The position numbers and the translations under genes are program-made. Below, one piece after another: positions 17,332-41,998 of a DNA stretch of 46,501 nucleotides; position 1 is the stretch's first letter; each line of letters starts with the position of its first letter. Origin of the DNA: a virus (taxonomy: Duplodnaviria; Heunggongvirae; Uroviricota; Caudoviricetes); IMG/VR virus record IMGVR_UViG_2711768023_000006; one strand, written 5' to 3'. A model generated the notes under the pieces. It did no database searches. It had not been told where the DNA came from and worked only from the letters and a program-made list of their open reading frames with translations.

Positions 17332-18920
17332 TGGGACGCATCATTGATACTGACGGAAAACCTTTCTCCTTTGACCCGGAGATGCAGAGTGCCGCGCTGG
17401 ATATTCCGCAGATTGCCAGCCGTTATATTGAACATCCGGCTTCGGGTATCACCCCGAACCGGGCGGCGCAGTGCCTTCGCGGGGCTGAACGTGGCGATCT
17501 GATTGCCCAGTCCGATCTGGCCGCTGATATTGAAGAAAAGGACACCCACCTTTTTGCGGAGCTGGGCAAGCGACGTCTTGCCATTCAGGGGGTGCCATGG
17601 AGTATTGAGCCGCCACCGAACGCCAGCGCGAATGAGAAAAAGGACGCGGAAATGCTCGACGAATATCTGCATTCCGCAGACTGGTTTGATGCCATGCTGT
17701 TTGACGCCACGGATGCCATCCTGAAGGGCTATTCCTGCATGGAAATTGAGCACGGGATGCTCGGTAAAATGCACATCATCCGCGCCATCCGCTGGCGTGA
17801 CAGCGGGCATTTCTGCCTTAACCCGGATGATTTGAGCGAACTGCGGCTGCGTGACGGCAGCCATGCCGGGGTGGCGTTTCAGCCCTTTGGCTGGATAGTG
17901 CATCAGTCGCGTTCACGCACCGGCTACGGTGGTGCGACGGGGCTTGTCAGAACGCTTATCTGGCCGTTCATTTTCAAAAACTATTCCGTGCGCGATCTGG
18001 CGGAATTTCTGGAGGTGTACGGCCTGCCAATGAAGGTCGGGAAATACCCGTCCGGGGCAACACCGGAGCAGAAAAGTGCCCTGATGCGGGCGGTGATGGA
18101 TATCGGGCGACGTACAGGCGGGATCATCCCGGCCGGGATGTCGCTGGAGTTTCAGGCGGCAGCGAACGGTCAGGCCGATCCGTTTGAAACCATGATTTCG
18201 TGGGGTGAGCGTTCCATCTCCAAAGCAATACTCGGCGGCACGCTGACCACAGAAGCCGGAGACAAAGGCGCGCGCTCGCTGGGTGAGGTGCATAACGAGG
18301 TGCGCCGGGAAATCAGGGATTCTGATTTACGCCAGCTGGCTGCAACCCTGAACCGCGATCTGGTGTATCCGCTGTATGCCCTGAACACCGCCCACGCCAT
18401 TGATATCCGTCGCCTGCCGCGTATCTGTTTCCAGACCAAAGAACCGGGGGATATCACCAAAATAGCCAGTGCGGTGATGCAACTCAGTGCGGGGATGGAT
18501 ATTCCTGATCCCTGGGTACGGGATCAGACCGGTATTCCACAGCCCACGCCCGGTGAAGCCATATTCCGTGTCCGTCAGAGCAGTAATGAACCGGCCATGC
18601 CTGACAGGGAAACGCTACCGGAAAAACAGGAAAAGACAGAACAGACGGCGCTTTCAGCCCGACTGCCGGAAGCGAAAAACACGCCGCGTGATGAACTGGA
18701 CGACATGGGGGACGCGGTGCCTGCCCGCCGCTTACAGGAGGCCATCGATCCGGTGCTGGAGCCGGTCATTGATGTCATCAGAACGCGGGGGCTGGCGGAG
18801 GCACTGGCAGACCTGCCTGCCCTTTACCGTGAAATGGATGATTCCCGCCTGATGACGCTGCTCAGTGATGCCATGTTTGCTGCGGAAATGAAGGGGATGC
18901 TGGATGGCTCAGGGGATTGA
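17331..18920 (+). CDS. Portal protein (Mu gp29-like)
   Basis: 529-aa protein between terminase and F; start overlaps terminase stop (TAGTG). Confidence 0.75.
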   Translation: MGRIIDTDGKPFSFDPEMQSAALDIPQIASRYIEHPASGITPNRAAQCLRGAERGDLIAQSDLAADIEEKDTHLFAELGKRRLAIQGVPWSIEPPPNASANEKKDAEMLDEYLHSADWFDAMLFDATDAILKGYSCMEIEHGMLGKMHIIRAIRWRDSGHFCLNPDDLSELRLRDGSHAGVAFQPFGWIVHQSRSRTGYGGATGLVRTLIWPFIFKNYSVRDLAEFLEVYGLPMKVGKYPSGATPEQKSALMRAVMDIGRRTGGIIPAGMSLEFQAAANGQADPFETMISWGERSISKAILGGTLTTEAGDKGARSLGEVHNEVRREIRDSDLRQLAATLNRDLVYPLYALNTAHAIDIRRLPRICFQTKEPGDITKIASAVMQLSAGMDIPDPWVRDQTGIPQPTPGEAIFRVRQSSNEPAMPDRETLPEKQEKTEQTALSARLPEAKNTPRDELDDMGDAVPARRLQEAIDPVLEPVIDVIRTRGLAEALADLPALYREMDDSRLMTLLSDAMFAAEMKGMLDGSGD

Positions 18921-20830: not shown

Positions 20831-21007
20831 TGGTTTAAGGTATGCAAACGTATTACCTTACCCCCTTCAGGCGCGTGTCGTGATTTTCTAACCTGTATTT
20901 AACGGGCTTTAAAATCTGCGTGAAGCGCCTTTCTCATTCCCCCCCTGTCAGCACTTTCTGAAGTCCCGCAAAACCAGCCCCAAAAATACCCGGCTTATGC
21001 TGCCGGT

Positions 21008-34421: not shown

Positions 34422-35302
34422 TGTTTCATGTTGATAATAATTCCGGCGTGGCGAATATGCCTGCGCTGGCACCGGCGCAGAGTAATACCACCACCTGGTT
34501 TACCGAAGGTGACGGACAAAAAGGTATCAGCTGGATTGGTCAGGACTGGCTGAATATTCTCCAGGCCGAACTGCTGAATATTCTGGCTGAAGCCAGTATT
34601 CAGCCGGATAAGGCGCAGTTAAACCAGCTTACGCTGTCCATTAAAGCCATTATCGCTGCGAATGCCTTTTCCCGGAAAAATAACCTGAAAGAAATTGCTG
34701 ATGCCGGTGCGGAGGCCCAGCGTCTGGCCCGTGGTTATCTTGGTCTGGGGACGCTTGCCACAAAAAACAGTCTTGGTCCCGCTGACGTTAATGCCCTGGC
34801 GAAGGATCAGAATCTCGCCGACCTGGAGAATAAGGGAACCGCCCGTAATAATCTGGATGTTTACAGCAAAAGCGAAGGTGATAACCGTTACCTGCGCAGG
34901 GAGCAGAACGGCGCAGACATTCCGGATAAAGGGGCTTTTATCGATAACGTCGGTTTACGGGAAACGGTAAACAGGGCGGCGAATGCCCTGCCATCGGACG
35001 GCACCGCCGTTGCCGCGAACAGGCTGGCAAATGCCCACACAATTAATGGTGTTCCCTTTGACGGGACGCAGGATATCACTATCTCATCAGGAACAGTAAC
35101 CGCCATAAGACTGGGGTCGGTGACCGCACATATGCCCGGAACATGGGAAAGCTGGGATCTGAATCTGGGGGGCGGCAATGTTCTTACCGGAATTAAAGTA
35201 CAGGATGTCGGTAAGAATACGGCAGATAACGTCGGCGGCGTGTATTACCGGCCGTTGCAGTATCTGTTAAATGGAGCATGGGTGACGGCTGCAAGTATAT
35301 AA
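34421..35302 (+). CDS. S: Tail fibre protein S (constant N-terminus plus currently expressed variable C-terminus)
   Basis: 293 aa; codons 173-181 span a gix-like recombination site; downstream part lies in invertible segment. Confidence 0.75.
34938..34963. other. Left invertase crossover site (gix/hix-like, 26 bp) inside S
   Basis: TTATCGATAACGTCGGTTTACGGGAA, imperfect dyad with central TC; inverse partner at 36255-36280. Confidence 0.6.
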
Positions 35303-35310
35303 TGATATTC

Positions 35311-35336
35311 AGAAGGCCTTCCGGCCTTCTTTATTA
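35311..35336. terminator. Bidirectional terminator hairpin between S and convergent U'
   Basis: AGAAGGCC-TTCC-GGCCTTCT followed by TTATT; overlaps U' stop. Confidence 0.6.
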
Positions 35337-35855
35337 CTGTGGCTGCTCAGGCCATTTAATGGCGTTAAATTCAGCTTCTGTTTTAATGGCGGGTAGTTCC
35401 ATTTTCTTCACCTGACTGATGTATGCCATCCATTGGGTAAGTGCTGCTCTGTCTTCATCGCTGATGGTGCCCAGTTGTAGCTCCGTTCTCCAGTCATTAA
35501 TTTTTTCATATGCCTGATTAAGATATGACTGGCGCATTGCTTCCAGTTTTCTTGCGTAGTTAACCGGAATACGGGAGATTATGCCATTATCAAACTTCCA
35601 GTTTCCTGAAATATCCGTGCCTTCAGGGAGTTCATCGACCTCAACCACAGAAAACCCCGCAGGATACAGCGCCGAGGCGTCCTGTGATATTGAGCAGATA
35701 ACGCCGCTGTCAGGTGTTATGCAAAGTTTATATTTTTTGGTGAATAATGGCAGGGATTCGTAGAAATCCTTACCATCTTCACTCTGGAAATACTGAACAT
35801 TATTACCATATGGCATATTTTCAGGATAATAACGGGTTATATTTTTTAGTTCCAT
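35334..35855 (-). CDS. Tail fibre assembly protein (U'/Tfa) in the currently silent orientation
   Basis: 173-aa protein on minus strand inside invertible segment, RBS GGAGG, directly downstream of alternative fibre tip. Confidence 0.7.
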   Translation of the reverse strand: MELKNITRYYPENMPYGNNVQYFQSEDGKDFYESLPLFTKKYKLCITPDSGVICSISQDASALYPAGFSVVEVDELPEGTDISGNWKFDNGIISRIPVNYARKLEAMRQSYLNQAYEKINDWRTELQLGTISDEDRAALTQWMAYISQVKKMELPAIKTEAEFNAIKWPEQPQ

Positions 35856-35906
35856 AAAATCCTCCTGGAAATAAATCTGTTTTAAAATATATTATTTACT
35901 GACTAT

Positions 35907-36268
35907 TTATAACTGAGATACCGTAATCCATGTACCTCCGACTAATTTTTGCAGGGGTCTGAATGCTATAAAATCGTTTGAAGCATCAACTTTACTGTCA
36001 ATCTGCAGGCCTGCCATAACATTACCGTACGCAGAGTAATATGCCCCACCGTACATTACCTGCCTGTTCTCTGCTCCCAGCCTGATATCCTGGATATATC
36101 GGGAATCCGCATCCTGCTGTGTTATACCAGAAGTGATGTTTATGTCCTGCGTCCCGTCAAAGGGAACCCCATTAATATTTCTTGGGGTGGCGAGTCTATT
36201 CGCGGCAACGGCGGTGCCGTCCGATGGCAGAGCATTCGCCGCCCTGTTTACCGTTTCCCGTAAACCGA
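35907..36268 (-). other. Silent alternative tail-fibre C-terminal cassette (Sv')
   Basis: Minus-strand frame ...[60 protein letters not shown]...GGTWITVSQL*; first ~45 codons near-identical to S codons 178-222, no start codon, in-frame stop just upstream of repeat. Confidence 0.65.
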
Positions 36269-36280
36269 GGTTTTCAGGAA
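36255..36280. other. Right invertase crossover site (gix/hix-like, 26 bp)
   Basis: TTCCCGTAAACCGAGGTTTTCAGGAA, very close to recalled Mu gix sequence; central GA is reverse complement of left-site core. Confidence 0.65.
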
Positions 36281-36345
36281 AGCCAGGATTAACTCTGTTT
36301 TATTCCTCATGCGACAATTCCGGCTTTTTATAATAAGGAAATCGT

Positions 36346-36918
36346 ATGCTGATTGGGTATATCAGGGTGTCAACAAATGACCAGAATACGGCGCTACAAA
36401 GAAATGCGCTGGAATGTGCAGGATGTGAGCTGTTTTTCGAAGACAGAATAAGCGGTAAGACAAGGGAGCGTCCCGGACTTAAACGCGCATTAAAGCGACT
36501 CCGGCCAGGGGATACCCTGCTGGTCTGGAAACTGGATCGCCTTGGACGCAGTATGCAGCACCTTGTCCTTTTAACAGAAGAACTCCGGCAACGCGGCGTT
36601 AACTTCCGCAGCATTACGGACAATATTGATACATCCACTCCCATGGGACGTTTCTTTTTCCATATAATGGGCGCGCTGGCGGAAATGGAGCGGGAACTCA
36701 TTATTGAACGTACACGCGCGGGTCTTGCTGCTGCCCGTGCTCAGGGGCGTCATGGCGGCAGACCTCAGAAACTGACAGAGAAAGAGCGGGAGCAAATCGC
36801 CCGTTTGCTGGCTAATGGCGAGTCCCGTAAACAAATCGCACTGATATTTGATATTGGCCTTTCCACCCTTTATCGTTATTTTCCTGCCTCACCAGCTCCG
36901 TCACCAAAAGTACCGTGA
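36346..36918 (+). CDS. gin: Serine recombinase, DNA invertase Gin/Hin/Pin family
   Basis: MLIGYIRVSTNDQNTALQRNALECAGCE...GDTLLVWKLDRLGRSMQHL...MGRFFFHIMGALAEMERELIIERT, near-identical motifs to Gin. Confidence 0.95.
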   Translation: MLIGYIRVSTNDQNTALQRNALECAGCELFFEDRISGKTRERPGLKRALKRLRPGDTLLVWKLDRLGRSMQHLVLLTEELRQRGVNFRSITDNIDTSTPMGRFFFHIMGALAEMERELIIERTRAGLAAARAQGRHGGRPQKLTEKEREQIARLLANGESRKQIALIFDIGLSTLYRYFPASPAPSPKVP

Positions 36919-37003
36919 CGCTTTTTTGAATTTCCGCAAAACACATATTTTTCAGCGGTCGCTATTCTGACTCTGTTTAATTCAGAAACAGGCAGAAAAG
37001 ACG

Positions 37004-39058
37004 ATGTCAGACTCCAAGTGGAAAATGCTCTCCGCCATGCCCGGAGAGTTTTCAGTCAAGGTTGCCGGTGGCACGGTGGCATTTATTGAAAGCCCTTTCC
37101 GCCCTTCGGGTAATAAAGGGGGGATCACCTTCGCAGACTGCGTGATCCGCTTCAGCACGAAAGAGCCATTATGGGTAATGCCGGTATCCGGTAATCCCAG
37201 TGCAGAAATCACCAGTTCAGGCGTGACTGGCATCATTCCAATCACATCTGACGTGGCCGGAACGCTCACGCCCTCCGACTGGAATGCACCGGATAACGCC
37301 GGGCCTTCCGGTAGCACGAATGGCAGCAGTTCAGAGCCGGAATATTACTTTGTTGTCATTCTCGCGGGTCAGTCAAATGGCATGGCCTACGGCGAGGGGC
37401 TGCCGTTACCGGATTCGTTTGACCGCCCGGACCCACGCATTAAGCAACTGGCACGCCGCAGTACGGTAACGCCCAACGGTACGTCGTGTACATACAACGA
37501 CATCATTCCGGCAGACCACTGCCTGCATGATGTTCAGGATATGAGCGGGATAAACCACCCGAAAGCTGATCTGGCAAAAGGCCAGTACGGGACTGTCGGT
37601 CAGGGGTTGCATATTGCCAAAAAACTGCTTCCCTATATCCCACAGAATGCCGGGATACTTCTGGTGCCCTGTTGTCGTGGCGGGTCAGCATTCACCACTG
37701 GAGCCGACGGCTCATTCAGTGAGGCCAGCGGTGCTTCCGCTGATTCTTCACGCTGGGGGGCCGGTAAACCTCTGTATCAGGACCTGGTAAGCCGCACCAA
37801 AGTCGCGCTGGCGAAAAACCCGAAAAACAAACTTCTGGCTGTGGTCTGGATGCAGGGAGAGGCAGACCTTGCCTCAGGAAGCCAGCAGCATAATAGTTTA
37901 TTCACGGCCATGGTTCAGCAGTTCAGAACTGACCTGGCTCCGCTTGCTGCGCAGTGCGTGAGTGGAAATGCCACCACGGTGCCGTGGATTTGCGGTGATA
38001 CCACGTATTACTGGAAAAACGCTGGCACCGATAAATATGAGGCAGTATACGGTGGCTACAAAGGCAAGGAAGCACAGAAAATTTTCTTTGTACCGTTCCT
38101 GACGGATGAGAATGGACAGAGCACGCCAACGAATGCTCCGGCGGAAGACCCGGATATTGTGGCTGTCGGGTATTACGGTGCAGCATCCCGAACCCAGGGC
38201 AGTTTTGTTTCGACACAGCGTGACAGCCATTTCAGCTCATGGGCACGCAGGGGCGTCATTTCAGACCGTCTGGCCTCAGCTATTATGCTCCATGCAGGGC
38301 GCACGGCTGAACTGATGCGTGGGCAGACCGTGACACCACCGGATGAGAAGCCGTCACCTGATACACCATCAAAACCGTCCACGCCACCCGCAGACACCAC
38401 GACGATGAGTACGCTATTTGCTTACCGGGCATCTGAGTCTGAAGGACGGTTGACACCACAGGGTTGGGCTGCCGGAGGTGGCAAGGCTCAAATCGTGGAT
38501 GATGCCGGAGCCAGCGGGGGTAAGGCAATGAAACTGACCAAGGAAACAGGAAGAGCCCCCTGGTACCTTGAGCATGATGCTGGTAATGGTGCGGACCTGC
38601 TGGGTAAAGGTGGTCTTGTCAGTTGTCGTTTTAAACTCGATGGCGCGCTTACGGCTAATCAGTACGCACTGGCGCTGTACTGGCCGGTTTCTGCCCTGCC
38701 GCAAGGGGTTACTCTGGAAGGAAATGCCGGTCATAACCTGCTGGCATCGTTCTACGTACAGAGCGATGCCACAGACCTTAACGTGATGTATCACAAAGGA
38801 AACACGGCGCAGAACACGAAGCTGGGGTCATTCGGCGCATTTAATAACGAATGGCATACGCTGGGCTTCCGTTTTGCCGGTAACAACAGTATTGAGGTGA
38901 CGCCGGTCATTGATGGTAAGGACGGGACACCATTCATGCTGTCGCAGTCTCCGGTCGGCACGTTTACGGCAGACAAGTTGCGCGTGACCGATATCACTAA
39001 AAATGCGACTTACCCGGTACTGATTGACAGTATCGTGGTGGAAGTGAATAACGCGTAA
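37004..39058 (+). CDS. SGNH/sialate-O-acetylesterase-like hydrolase with Pro/Thr linker and C-terminal beta-rich domain
   Basis: 684 aa; GQSNGMAYGEG block with catalytic Ser, downstream RDSH (Asp/His) block; linker PPDEKPSPDTPSKPSTPPADTTT; no signal peptide evident. Confidence 0.6.
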   Translation: MSDSKWKMLSAMPGEFSVKVAGGTVAFIESPFRPSGNKGGITFADCVIRFSTKEPLWVMPVSGNPSAEITSSGVTGIIPITSDVAGTLTPSDWNAPDNAGPSGSTNGSSSEPEYYFVVILAGQSNGMAYGEGLPLPDSFDRPDPRIKQLARRSTVTPNGTSCTYNDIIPADHCLHDVQDMSGINHPKADLAKGQYGTVGQGLHIAKKLLPYIPQNAGILLVPCCRGGSAFTTGADGSFSEASGASADSSRWGAGKPLYQDLVSRTKVALAKNPKNKLLAVVWMQGEADLASGSQQHNSLFTAMVQQFRTDLAPLAAQCVSGNATTVPWICGDTTYYWKNAGTDKYEAVYGGYKGKEAQKIFFVPFLTDENGQSTPTNAPAEDPDIVAVGYYGAASRTQGSFVSTQRDSHFSSWARRGVISDRLASAIMLHAGRTAELMRGQTVTPPDEKPSPDTPSKPSTPPADTTTMSTLFAYRASESEGRLTPQGWAAGGGKAQIVDDAGASGGKAMKLTKETGRAPWYLEHDAGNGADLLGKGGLVSCRFKLDGALTANQYALALYWPVSALPQGVTLEGNAGHNLLASFYVQSDATDLNVMYHKGNTAQNTKLGSFGAFNNEWHTLGFRFAGNNSIEVTPVIDGKDGTPFMLSQSPVGTFTADKLRVTDITKNATYPVLIDSIVVEVNNA

Positions 39059-39202
39059 GCAGGATAAAAAAATGCCGCCGGTAAGGGAAAACAAGAAACC
39101 GGCGGCAAAAAGATCGTTATATCCAAAGCAAAAAATGCAGTGCACCTTTTTACCTAACAGATATTACCGGTGTCAACACCATGTCAATAATTGGGAGGGA
39201 TA

Positions 39203-39385
39203 ATGACATTTTTACAGCTTATTTTATTGTATTTCTGCACGGCAGTATGTGCGTTATATCTGGTGAGTGGTGGTTATAAGGCCATCAGAAATTATGTTCG
39301 CCGCAAAATTGAGGACGCAGCAGCTGAAAAACTCAGTAAAACAGCGCAGGTAACTCCGCTCCCAAAAGACCCGACCCAGCCCTGA
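39203..39385 (+). CDS. Small membrane protein
   Basis: MTFLQLILLYFCTAVCALYLVSGG TM segment; RBS GGGAGGG before ATG 39203. Confidence 0.45.
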   Translation: MTFLQLILLYFCTAVCALYLVSGGYKAIRNYVRRKIEDAAAEKLSKTAQVTPLPKDPTQP

Positions 39386-39420
39386 TTGCAGGGCTTTATT
39401 CCCGCATAAGGAGGATATAC

Positions 39421-39675
39421 ATGCCAGAAATTAAAGGCACCGTCACTGAAGACCTGGTAAAACAGGCACTGTATTCCGGTGAAGTAAATAAGTTGCTGAA
39501 AGCGCAGGTCCGCAAGGATTTTGAGGCACAAATCGACACTTACGTTGATGAAGTGCTGGCAAAACTTATTGGGCCAGCAGTTGCGGCCAGTGATGCTGAT
39601 AATGAGCCGAAAACCGACGCGCAGCCAGAGCAACCAGACCCGGCTCAGCCCGGAACTGACAGTACCATGATGTAA
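39421..39675 (+). CDS. hypothetical acidic protein
   Basis: 84 aa with strong RBS AAGGAGG. Confidence 0.5.
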   Translation: MPEIKGTVTEDLVKQALYSGEVNKLLKAQVRKDFEAQIDTYVDEVLAKLIGPAVAASDADNEPKTDAQPEQPDPAQPGTDSTMM

Positions 39676-39842
39676 CAATACAAACCGGTGGTGTCCTCTG
39701 CCGGTTTGACACTAATGAAAACATCTTTGCCGCTATCCAGCCATATGTAATCGCTGGATAGTATTTCGTATTCAGAAATATAGCTGCTTATGGAGCAGTC
39801 AATCCTGCTTCCCCATCCGGGCAGGCAAATGAACCGGTATCA

Positions 39843-40136
39843 TTAGTCCGATTCACGCTTTTGTAGAATCGTTCCCAGAATGCTATACAGCTCATTAGCC
39901 TGTTGCTCCATCATTGAGACGGAGGCTATACGGTGCAAAGTGATTTCAGGAGGTGGCACACCTCCATCTTCTTGCTGTGGAGGAAAAACATAAGATTTAA
40001 TAAAAAAGTTGAAGCATATGAACTCTCCCGCACTCGAACTGTATTTGCAGGCATCTGAATAATCGGAAAAATAATCATTATAGATTTCCGCATTTTCAAT
40101 CATTTTTCGATTTCTCGTCGTTACATGATTGTCCAT
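39843..40136 (-). CDS. hypothetical protein, divergent from com-mom
   Basis: 97-aa minus-strand ORF; AT-rich intergenic region shared with com-mom. Confidence 0.4.
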   Translation of the reverse strand: MDNHVTTRNRKMIENAEIYNDYFSDYSDACKYSSSAGEFICFNFFIKSYVFPPQQEDGGVPPPEITLHRIASVSMMEQQANELYSILGTILQKRESD

Positions 40137-40254
40137 AGCAGCCTCTTACGCTGGCAATTAACCAATTGACTTCTATAAATTAGTTGATTTGTTTGCTTTG
40201 CGGTATTCAAATGTACAATCATTCAGCACTTATGCGTTACAGCACCGTTTAAAA

Positions 40255-40392
40255 TTAGTGATCAAACTCATAAATTTTCGCTAATGACATTTCGTGTTAT
40301 TTGTTGTATCAATTAAATAAATCAAATCGATCGTTTTTGTCGATCGATTGAGTGATAAAGATATCAACAACAAAGCAGGAGGTTATGCGGCC
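40255..40392 (+). promoter_or_regulatory. com-mom upstream regulatory region with GATC cluster
   Basis: GATC at 40260-40263, 40329-40332 and 40342-40345 upstream of com start. Confidence 0.45.
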
Positions 40393-40593
40393 ATGTATCG
40401 AAACATACGGTGCCGACATTGTAACAAGCTACTGGCACGAGCCAGCTTCAGTTATCTGGAAGTTAAATGTCCGCGCTGTAAAACCCTCAATCAAATCACA
40501 TCTCAGAGCGCCACAGAGCACCCCACATACACAAGGAAATCCTGTCGTGGGGAACAGAAAGCAAGTTACATCCCGTATCATCAGCACGCCTGA
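40393..40593 (+). CDS. com: Com-like zinc-finger translational activator of mom
   Basis: [17 protein letters not shown]...VKCPRCKT resembles Mu Com (MKSIRCKNCNKLL...RCPRCK); RBS AGGAGG; overlaps mom. Confidence 0.7.
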
Positions 40594-41284
40594 ACTTATT
40601 CACTATAACGACAATATCGTCGGTTATGGCTCCCGTGAGTTACGGGTTGAGACAATAAGTTGCTGGCTGGCCCGGCTGGTCGTCGTCAATAAACATTACA
40701 GCCATCGTTTCGTAAATAATTCCTACCTTCATCTGGGCATATTTTCAGAACGGGAGCTGGTTGGCGTAATGCAATGGGGTTATGCCCTTAATCCAAACAA
40801 TGGTGCACGCGTCGTAACTGGCACGCAGAACCGCGAATATATGGAGCTTAACCGGTTATGGCTGCATGACTGTATGCCGAGAAACTCCGAATCAAGGGCA
40901 ATCAGTTACGCGCTCAAACTAATCAGACAACTTTATCCGCAGGTGCAGTGGGTTCAGTCGTTTGCAGATGAGCGTTGTGGCTGTCTTGGTGTCGTGTACC
41001 AGGCAAGCAATTTTGATTATGTAGGCAGTCATGAAACAACATTCTATGAACTTGATGGCGAGTGGTATCACGAGATTTGCAAGAATGCAATCAAACGAGG
41101 AGGACAGCGAGGTGAACATCTGCGGGCTAATATCGACAGAGCCAGTGTTCATAAATTCCGTCAGTTTCGTTACATCCGGTTTCTGGACAAGAGAGCCAGA
41201 AAACGCCTTAACACAAAGCTATTCAAAGTCCAGCCTTACCCAAAACCACAAACAGTTAAAACTGGTTTGAAAGAGAGTGAATGA
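40547..41284 (+). CDS. mom: Mom-like DNA modification enzyme (adenine modification); start uncertain
   Basis: ...[43 protein letters not shown]...[11 protein letters not shown]...[23 protein letters not shown] matches Mu Mom; GTG at 40547 with RBS AAGGA; ORF extends upstream to 40352. Confidence 0.8.
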
Positions 41285-41324
41285 ACGCTTAAAAACTCAT
41301 TCTAAAACTCAAAAGAAAAGCGCC

Positions 41325-41412
41325 GATTTAGTATCAAATAAGTTGCGTATCGGCGTTTTTCAGCGGTATCAAATGAAATGCAAATCGGTATCAAAAAAAT
41401 CGCCGCGCTATA
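41325..41412 (+). promoter_or_regulatory. Prophage right end (attR) with three inverted transposase-binding-like repeats
   Basis: CGGTATCAAA at 41364-41373 and 41386-41395, variant AGTATCAAA at 41330-41338; terminal ...GCGCTATA mirrors left terminal TATAACC. Confidence 0.6.
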
Positions 41413-41998
41413 GACAGCCTAAGCGGCTGCTGACCTCCCTGACCATGCTGTAAATCTCTTTATCCTGGTTGTCACAGAATAAGCCCGGTAAAATACGGGC
41501 TTATGAACGACATCTCTTCTGACGACATCTTCCTGCTGAAACAGCGCCTTGCCGAACGTCAGTTGAAAACGAAACCGCTGCTGAAATCCCTGGAAAGCTG
41601 GCTGCGTGAAAAGATGAAAACCCTGTCGCGACACTCAGAACTGGCGAAAGCGTTCGCATACGCCCTGAACCAGTGGCCGGCGCTGACGTACTATGCAGAT
41701 GATGGCTGGGCTGAGGCGGACAATAACATCGCTGAAAATGCGTTGCGGATGGTCAGTCTGGGCCGCAAAAACTACCTGTTCTTCGGTTCGGATCATGGAG
41801 GAGAGCGGGGAGCGCTGCTGTACAGCCTGATCGGGACGTGCAAACTGAACGGAGTGGAGCCAGAAAGCTACCTCCGCTATGTCCTTGACGTCATAGCCGA
41901 CTGGCCGATAAACCGGGTCGGCGAACTGCTCCCCTGGCGCGTAGCACTGCCGACTGAATAACACATTCCCGTCAATACGGTTCTTGCTGCACGCTTAC
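41413..41998 (+). mobile_element. IS66-family element, right portion (tnpB 3' end, internally deleted tnpC, right terminus)
   Basis: QPKRLLTSLTML* at 41415-41453; tnpC remnant; ends ...CACGCTTAC, complementary to the IS66-family GTAAGCG terminal motif. Confidence 0.7.
41503..41961 (+). pseudogene. IS66 tnpC, internally deleted (N-terminal leader fused to C-terminal ~130 aa)
   Basis: ...MKTLSRHSELAKAFAYALNQW...DNNIAENALRMVSLGRKNYLFFGSDHGGERGALLYSLIGTCKLNGVEPESYLRYVL...LLPW matches transposase C-terminus only; 152 aa versus ~520 expected. Confidence 0.75.

Follow-up and report, generated by a model that had tools for sequence, protein, structure and literature searches.

The gene at 37004..39058 (plus strand) of the Caudoviricetes sequence IMGVR_UViG_2711768023_000006 from IMG/VR very probably codes for a NanS-p family sialate O-acetylesterase carried by a prophage, as judged from its sequence. 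The window, by which we mean this whole stretch of 46,501 nt, contains a Mu-like transposable prophage in which the gene lies between gin and com-mom. The enzyme family is already known, and public databases name the protein automatically. What is new here is an architecture in which the N-terminal DUF1737 domain of NanS-p proteins is replaced, a Mu-like carrier in which the gene is fixed, and a cassette junction that falls at a domain boundary. According to the program-made list of open reading frames (ORFs), the gene starts with ATG and encodes 684 amino acids, which we divide as follows:

37004..37252 (+), residues 1-83: novel all-beta N-terminal domain (N-domain), in the place of DUF1737
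37253..37339 (+), residues 84-112: linker rich in Ser, Gly, Pro, and Asn (76% P/S/T/G/N/D; predicted local confidence, pLDDT, <50)
37340..38308 (+), residues 113-435: NanS-type catalytic domain (SASA / SGNH type II) containing Gln123, Ser124, and His409
38309..38407 (+), residues 436-468: Pro/Thr/Ser-rich interdomain linker, recognized by composition and differing in length among homologues
38408..39058 (+), residues 469-684 and stop codon: lectin-like jelly-roll C-terminal domain (DUF6645)

The original prediction, made from the sequence without database searches, had described an SGNH hydrolase with the motif GQSNGMAYGEG, a downstream Asp/His block, a Pro/Thr-rich linker and a lectin-like C-terminal domain, and each of these is present. 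The motif corresponds to residues 122-132, within a Pfam SASA match (PF03629, residues 117-312, 1.5e-13, above the gathering score) that had been suggested as a check. The Asp/His block is RDSH at residues 406-409, and the linker TPPDEKPSPDTPSKPSTPPADTTT occupies residues ~444-467. Residues 110-428 align with Escherichia coli NanS/YjhS (PDB 3PT5; E=1.8e-117), and 57.8% of 315 positions are identical. Residues 469-683 match the C-terminal domain of NanS-p (6YP6) at E=7.1e-98 and 68.8% identity, and Pfam DUF6645 (PF20350) covers residues 533-650 (7.4e-68). Among the PHROGs, the match to phrog_143 (1.7e-296) begins at residue 71.

The residues known from solved homologues are conserved. NanS was reported to work through Ser19 and His301, without a catalytic Asp, and to have Gln18 as part of its oxyanion hole (PMC9063846). 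Their equivalents in the window protein are Ser124, His409, and Gln123, allowing for a constant offset of 11 between the numbering of that paper and the chain index of 3PT5, and the three are invariant in an alignment of 13 homologues. In the phi24B protein's C-terminal domain, Y510, Y515, Y540, and F611 were proposed as carbohydrate-binding aromatic residues (PMC10462455). They correspond to Tyr554, Tyr559, Tyr584, and Phe654, with a constant offset of 422, and all four are conserved. The original prediction further called for a Ser/His/Asp triad, of which Ser124 and His409 are in place. The Asp of the canonical SGNH DxxH arrangement is absent, as the sequence R406-D407-S408-H409 has its Asp at position -2 rather than -3. 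Such a triad is an unsuitable yardstick for this family, and the missing Asp does not exclude function, since NanS reportedly lacks a catalytic Asp and is active (PMC9063846). Asp407 itself (block V, 38222-38230, residues 407-409) is invariant in 13 aligned Mu-type and close lambdoid proteins.

Further features are those of NanS-p proteins: the catalytic and C-terminal domains, the Ser/His/Gln residues, a prophage location with DUF1378 and DUF826 neighbours, and the lack of a signal peptide. As originally predicted, no hydrophobic stretch resembling a signal peptide is found in the first 60 residues, in which the Kyte-Doolittle(15) profile peaks at 1.08. According to a review, every NanS-p allele tested from EDL933 and O104:H4 is an active esterase on Neu5,9Ac2, supports growth on Neu5,9Ac2 and de-acetylates mucin O-glycans (PMC8065619), activities known for lambdoid alleles only. 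Given these homologues, the conserved residues and the activity of the tested alleles, we predict the enzymatic function with high confidence, in line with the prophage sialate esterase of the NanS-p type that had been one of the two functions originally proposed. The one family feature that is lacking is the N-terminal DUF1737 (PF08410), and for this reason we class the protein as a NanS-p variant and not as a typical member. The ratio of nonsynonymous to synonymous substitution rates (dN/dS) in the enzyme domains is ~0.09-0.13.

A search with the full-length protein splits its homologues into two architectures. Proteins of 647-655 amino acids contain DUF1737, SASA, and DUF6645 and cover ~85% of the query at 83-91% identity, whereas proteins of 678-691 amino acids are devoid of DUF1737 and cover 98-100% of it. 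In the alignment, the two are nearly collinear from the sequence EPEYY (residue 111) onward and unrelated before it. The DNA homology to two lambdoid loci extends from 37334 (codon ~111) to 39261 or 39336, within the DUF1378 gene, with 84-87% identity; DUF826 is common to the Mu-like and lambdoid loci at the protein level. The lambdoid loci run from the Q antiterminator to nanS-p, DUF1378, DUF826, holin, and lysozyme. The shared gene order and the start of the homology at 37334 indicate that the same cassette is present in two unrelated phage types, with its left junction at a domain boundary.

Several known systems resemble this locus in part. The lambdoid NanS-p proteins (933W L0105/z1466; phi24B vb_24B_21, that is, gp84) share the SASA/SGNH and DUF6645 domains, the downstream DUF1378 and DUF826 genes and the absence of a signal peptide. 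Identity is 83-91% to the copies of lambdoid phages that lack Shiga toxin (Stx) genes and ~65% to those of Stx phages. They differ by their DUF1737, in place of which the window protein has an unrelated beta domain of ~83 residues, and by their location, flanked by the Q antiterminator (or stx) on one side and the holin gene on the other, whereas here the gene lies between gin and com-mom, with no adjacent lysis genes. The carrier is a Mu-type transposable myovirus prophage instead of a lambdoid phage. Chromosomal E. coli NanS (YjhS, 3PT5) belongs to the same SGNH type II fold family and has the equivalent Ser19, His301, and Gln18, but it is a single-domain protein (337 residues in the 3PT5 chain) of the sialic-acid utilization system, carries neither extra domain and is not phage-borne. 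The P2-like phages vB_EcoM-569R5 and Entero_P88 encode a homologous esterase in a myovirus; both records end inside the esterase gene. These copies have kept DUF1737 (Pfam 7.4e-7) and are located after the P2 lysis genes.

Residues 1-114 of the window protein have no Pfam match at E<=10 and a single marginal PHROG match, and they do not align with copies of DUF1737. When residues 1-100 were compared exhaustively by HMMER with 1.84 billion representative proteins, four matches were obtained: two frameshifted fragments of the same gene and the proteins P0126 and P0127. We judged P0127 (E=6e-4) spurious, as it is a low-complexity ORF on a context-free contig of 1.3 kb. P0126 is a fragment at the end of a Salmonella enterica contig, with a 30%-identical N-domain that continues into the esterase motif, and it lies downstream of a gin-like invertase gene in a different Mu-like prophage. 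Its 90%-identity cluster (compare L005 8001-8461) comprises eight partial proteins, seven from Salmonella and one from Serratia, and most, if not all, are truncated by a contig end. Assemblies from short reads appear to be interrupted within this multi-copy gene, and its distribution outside E. coli is therefore probably underestimated. A word-indexed protein search with the N-domain alone returned fragments only. A profile search of genome contigs with the alignment of the N-domain and esterase, whose patterns fell in the linker-catalytic junction and the GQSN block, gave two esterase-domain matches, in Proteus and in a Bacillota metagenome-assembled genome, neither of which has the N-domain.

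A 60-61%-identical N-domain heads a 680-residue esterase in the Mu-like phage inserted in the Stx phages LC727881 and LC727895; there too, the esterase gene is followed by DUF1378, DUF826, and com. The three versions of the N-domain (100%, 61%, and 30% identical) share a core of hydrophobic, Gly, and Pro residues. Between the window and LC727895, the proportions of nonsynonymous and synonymous differences (pN and pS) are 0.23 and 0.77 (the latter saturated) in the N-domain and 0.20 and 0.72 in the catalytic domain. The AlphaFold2 model of residues 1-105 has a pLDDT of 72 overall and of 71-89 over residues 1-80; it shows five beta strands, and the linker that begins at residue 84 is disordered. 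DUF1737, for comparison, consists of one helix and three strands (bioRxiv 10.64898/2026.04.10.717836). The fold matches are weak and cupin-like, all of them below significance, and the N-domain contains no His and is thus not a metal-binding cupin enzyme. It is a real and constrained domain under purifying selection, and not a divergent DUF1737. We found it only as a fusion to the esterase, and only in E. coli/Shigella and Salmonella, within Mu-like prophages.

Among the 5426 complete E. coli genomes that we surveyed, 1320 contain NanS-p-like DNA. The window-type N-domain is present at >=90% identity in 28 genomes (the search gave 32 genomes and 43 places in total, including four weak cross-matches to the other type), and the type found in LC727895 and in E. 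coli that produces Shiga toxin (STEC) in 205 genomes (246 places). The gpT head gene of this lineage was found in 233 genomes (273 places). As 28 and 205 add up to 233, the esterase appears near-universal in the Mu-like lineage; this comparison is one of counts and not of genome lists, and it suggests but does not prove a one-to-one association. In the two strains checked (H120/H163 and H144/H159), the distance between the N-domain and gpT, both on the same strand, is 14.3 kb. All listed E. coli matches of the N-domain fall within genes that carry the annotation "DUF6645 domain-containing protein." At 22 of 22 IMG/VR loci, it is fused to the catalytic domain, with Mu-like neighbours wherever the contig extends far enough. 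Among 347 phage records with homologues, the N-terminus is covered only by the two Mu-like inserts. The exact 684-residue protein occurs on at least 1000 public contigs, where it is automatically named sialate O-acetylesterase, YjhS, or DUF6645. Some relatives without gin keep the esterase. In strains M3 and CI5, gin is lost and its last ~67 bp are retained before the esterase gene (L003 8849-9154; L004 5850-6155).

The esterase gene is surrounded by the following features:

36346..36918 (+): gin, the serine invertase of the adjoining invertible tail-fibre segment (Pfam Resolvase 1.6e-51, HTH_7 4.9e-15)
36919..37003 (+): gin-esterase intergenic region, a gap of 85 bp
39074..39106 (no strand assigned): GC-rich hairpin right after the esterase stop codon, read from the sequence, with a 9-bp stem GCCGCCGGT/ACCGGCGGC and a 15-nt loop
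39203..39385 (+): DUF1378 small single-pass membrane protein (Pfam DUF1378 1.2e-31; phrog_494; Kyte-Doolittle(19) maximum 2.27)
39421..39675 (+): DUF826 protein (Pfam DUF826 6.4e-16; phrog_311)
39843..40136 (-): orphan ORF in a variable slot between DUF826 and com (97 amino acids as listed, 86 in RefSeq)
40393..40593 (+): com (Pfam Zn_ribbon_Com 1.3e-12; RefSeq coordinates)
40547..41284 (+): mom, for DNA modification, at the prophage's right end (Pfam Mom 7.8e-78)

Pfam matches to MuA, MuB, the Mu portal, MuF, the gpT major head protein, the tail sheath, and the tape measure identify the carrier as Mu-like, and with gin, com, and mom these are the features of a Mu-like transposable prophage. 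Baseplate genes are annotated in identical prophages. Across strains, Mu-like prophages of this kind occupy different chromosomal sites, and a 4-bp target duplication is annotated for the Mu-like copy in LC727895. The invertible tail-fibre segment, gin, com, mom, and the right end follow one another in the same order as in phage Mu. The DNA of gin is ~70% and that of mom 72% identical to the Mu genes, and a GATC-rich mom control region (~40305-40350) with short exact matches to its Mu counterpart lies directly upstream of com. In Mu (AF083977), gin ends at 35673, the mom promoter occupies 35693-35759 and com starts at 35768, which leaves no gene between them, as stated in the original prediction. 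The window differs from Mu by an insertion of ~3.4 kb (36919-40300) between the end of gin and the GATC-rich region. This insertion encodes the 684-residue protein, as predicted, but the esterase gene is not the sole insert: the DUF1378, DUF826, and minus-strand orphan ORFs make four in total. The orphan has no Pfam or PHROG family match and is annotated as hypothetical; in relatives, this slot is occupied by other small ORFs, such as a Cys-rich ORF of 64 amino acids (L031 8686-8880, minus strand).

Upstream of the esterase, the block TGAATTTCCGCAAAA (36927-36941) is conserved in relatives with flanks that are only ~69% identical. A TAnnnT hexamer (TATTCT) lies ~25 nt downstream of it, and the -35 region is poor. 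The interval 36919-37003 possibly holds a candidate activator-dependent promoter. A copy of the block with one mismatch is found at 20959-20973, upstream of the gene for the I-like protease/scaffold protein, which in turn precedes gpT, and the Mu-like phage of LC727895 has the same pair. By our own arithmetic, the number of matches expected per window is ~0.06 if no more than one mismatch is allowed. The 15-nt block may represent a shared late-regulatory site. For the shared block TGAATTNNCGCAAAA, four matches with at most two mismatches were found against 1.8 expected, which is not significant. Matches at this threshold were not found before lys, P, or com; the nearest one before com is located upstream of the GATC cluster, with agreement at 14 of 18 positions. 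The one-mismatch pair of blocks provides a modest lead that the esterase gene might belong to the late regulon; the block is missing in front of the other late operons. In each of two diverged Mu-like phages (the window and L039, there at 18719-18733 and 34715-34729), the 15-nt block TGAAnTnnCGCAAAA itself precedes the I-like head-operon gene as well as the esterase. Downstream of the gene, the strong hairpin at 39074-39106, which the terminator scan did not report, is within the block common to the lambdoid loci and has a T-run on the minus strand only; it would stop antisense and not sense transcription.

From its close homology to characterized enzymes, we infer that Ser124 would act as the nucleophile and His409 as the base, and that the oxyanion hole would consist of Gln123 and a backbone Gly. 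The substrates would be 9-O-acetylated sialic acids (Neu5,9Ac2), which the enzyme would de-acetylate in free form as well as on mucin glycans, while the C-terminal jelly-roll would hold it on the glycan through an aromatic platform formed by Tyr554, Tyr559, Tyr584, and Phe654. As there is no signal peptide, the protein would probably reach its extracellular substrate only by the lysis of some of the prophage-bearing cells or by riding on the virion. Once de-acetylated, the sialic acid could then be consumed by those lysogens that survive. In evolutionary terms, the catalytic and C-terminal region, together with DUF1378, is the part held in common with lambdoid prophages, and DUF1737 is replaced by the lineage-specific beta domain of ~83 residues. 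By analogy with DUF1737, the N-domain would most likely be a docking or targeting module fitted to the Mu-like phage.

Several observations weigh against the assignment to NanS-p as set out above. Block V reads RDSH here and RSSH or RASH in NanS and in the NanS-p enzymes of Stx2a phages. By tblastn, the protein is only ~65% identical to the characterized Stx-phage enzymes, and its substrate preference could differ. The full-length AlphaFold2 model, built with 13 close homologues, was unusable (pLDDT 44), and solved homologues were used instead. As to expression, a scan of 36200-41600 for sigma-70 promoters and terminators gave no more sites than shuffled sequence. The Mu C-activator site TTAT-N6-ATAA has two matches in the window, none of them at the starts of the late operons or before the esterase. 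One of the two is a perfect dyad, TTATTCCCGCATAA, at 39396-39409 between DUF1378 and DUF826; it is probably due to chance, as 4 of 100 shuffled sequences have at least two matches. A gene in decay, a non-functional passenger remnant, would be compatible with the frameshifted fragments (P0002 and P0003) and the many partial entries at contig ends in public data. This is very improbable for a 684-residue sequence that is intact on at least 1000 contigs, conserves all its catalytic and binding residues, has a dN/dS of ~0.09-0.13 in its enzyme domains and is found in essentially every prophage of the lineage.

The other function originally proposed was that of a tail protein that modifies the receptor by de-acetylating the O-antigen or capsule of the host. 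SGNH esterase domains do occur in tail proteins of phages, the gene comes just after the tail-fibre/invertible segment, the protein has weak matches to PHROG tail families (phrog_25867, 1.2e-6; phrog_4201, 0.018), and de-acetylation of lipopolysaccharide has been raised as an untested possibility for NanS-p (PMC8065619). These matches, however, are confined to ~70-100 residues in the core of the esterase, the gene is set apart from the tail genes by gin, and its partners DUF1378 and DUF826 are those of lambdoid phages, where they stand beside lysis and not tail genes. Tail-associated SGNH deacetylases of phages are characterized by an adaptor or fibre module at the N-terminus and a location in the tail module. 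Here the gene lies outside the tail module, and the Pfam and PHROG searches detected no tail-adaptor, trimeric fibre, or spike domain; for the N-domain, fold comparison likewise gave no tail-protein match. Since the nearest relatives are moreover sialate esterases of demonstrated activity, we consider such a tail enzyme improbable. With ~100 N-terminal residues that are not DUF1737, the protein might be associated with the virion in a form other than the one first proposed.

Docking of the esterase by its N-domain on the capsid or another exposed structure of the Mu-like virion would extend and not replace the NanS-p assignment, and we regard it as a tentative proposal with a lower chance of being right than wrong. 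The particle would carry, or shed by cleavage of the linker, a mucin-binding de-acetylase. A precedent exists in phi24B gp84, described in a 2026 preprint as a virion protein whose DUF1737 forms hexamers in the centres of the capsid hexons and whose enzyme part is cleaved off (bioRxiv 10.64898/2026.04.10.717836). The swap affects exactly this module, with the DNA junction at the start of the catalytic domain; the replacement domain occurs in Mu-like phages only, evolves under purifying selection and is followed by a flexible linker, and the lineage carries the fusion as a fixed and not a sporadic trait. Against this, DUF1737, on which decoration of the gp84 type depends, is absent here, and P2-like myoviruses keep DUF1737, so that a change of phage type alone does not require a new anchor. 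The N-domain is only 60% identical between two sublineages, compared with 96% for the I (protease/scaffold) protein and ~93.5% for gpT DNA, a divergence that would not be expected under tight co-evolution with the capsid. Its fold also provides no link to known decoration proteins. A broader and equally tentative generalization is that NanS-p proteins are modular virion accessories whose anchor is swapped according to the phage type, DUF1737 in lambdoid and P2-like phages and the N-domain in Mu-like ones. Somewhat less likely still, the N-domain would serve a soluble enzyme released by lysis, with no link to the virion, either as a second carbohydrate-binding or substrate-targeting module or for oligomerization. 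A small beta-barrel or sandwich is a common fold among carbohydrate-binding modules, and the enzyme already has one lectin-like module. All structural matches are nevertheless below significance, no sequence family ties the N-domain to known carbohydrate-binding modules, and its restriction to Mu-like phages is left unexplained, while lambdoid and P2-like copies keep DUF1737.

Until now, NanS-p has been discussed almost only as a cargo of Stx and other lambdoid prophages that allows pathogenic E. coli to feed on the acetylated sialic acids of mucus. Our literature searches found no paper pairing "NanS-p" with "Mu-like," and the sole paper pairing "Mu-like prophage" with "acetylesterase" deals with an unrelated matter in Acinetobacter. 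The data reported here show that a whole lineage of Mu-type transposable prophages has its own version of NanS-p, present in ~4% of complete E. coli genomes, mostly STEC, and sometimes in several copies. Counts of nanS-p dosage that are restricted to lambdoid prophages or based on DUF1737 searches will miss these copies. The exact swap of a domain recently reported to anchor the protein in the capsid also provides a clean natural experiment on whether these esterases generally form part of the virion and on the function of their N-terminal modules. If docking on the virion by the N-domain proved true, de-acetylation or binding of host mucus would be part of particle biology across unrelated families of coliphages, beyond the benefit to lysogens. 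As the enzyme family is well known, the finding refines existing knowledge and does not open a new field.

Additional observations concern the prophage and its relatives. The invertible segment (34943-36275) is short, ~1.3 kb, and is bounded by 86-nt inverted repeats (34943-35028 and 36190-36275) that are 93% complementary; in an identical prophage, an alternative tail-fibre gene is truncated and carries a pseudogene annotation. A C-terminal fragment of an IS66-family transposase (41503-41961) lies immediately outside the right end of the prophage, and the Mu-like element appears to be inserted into or beside an IS66 element. At two IMG/VR loci (L009 2957; L014), the Mu-type esterase is followed by a divergent DUF1378 with 57% identity, and in L014 (5743-12440) DUF826, the orphan ORF, com, and mom are found several kb further on in reversed order; these may be recombinant or rearranged right ends. 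In the Mu-like insert of LC727895 (L031 9221-10472), com is followed by an ORF of 350 amino acids in place of mom. By eye, this ORF contains motifs resembling those of C5-cytosine methyltransferases (..GGTPCQAFS.. and ..ENV..), which suggests that the DNA modification gene has been swapped behind the same com gene.

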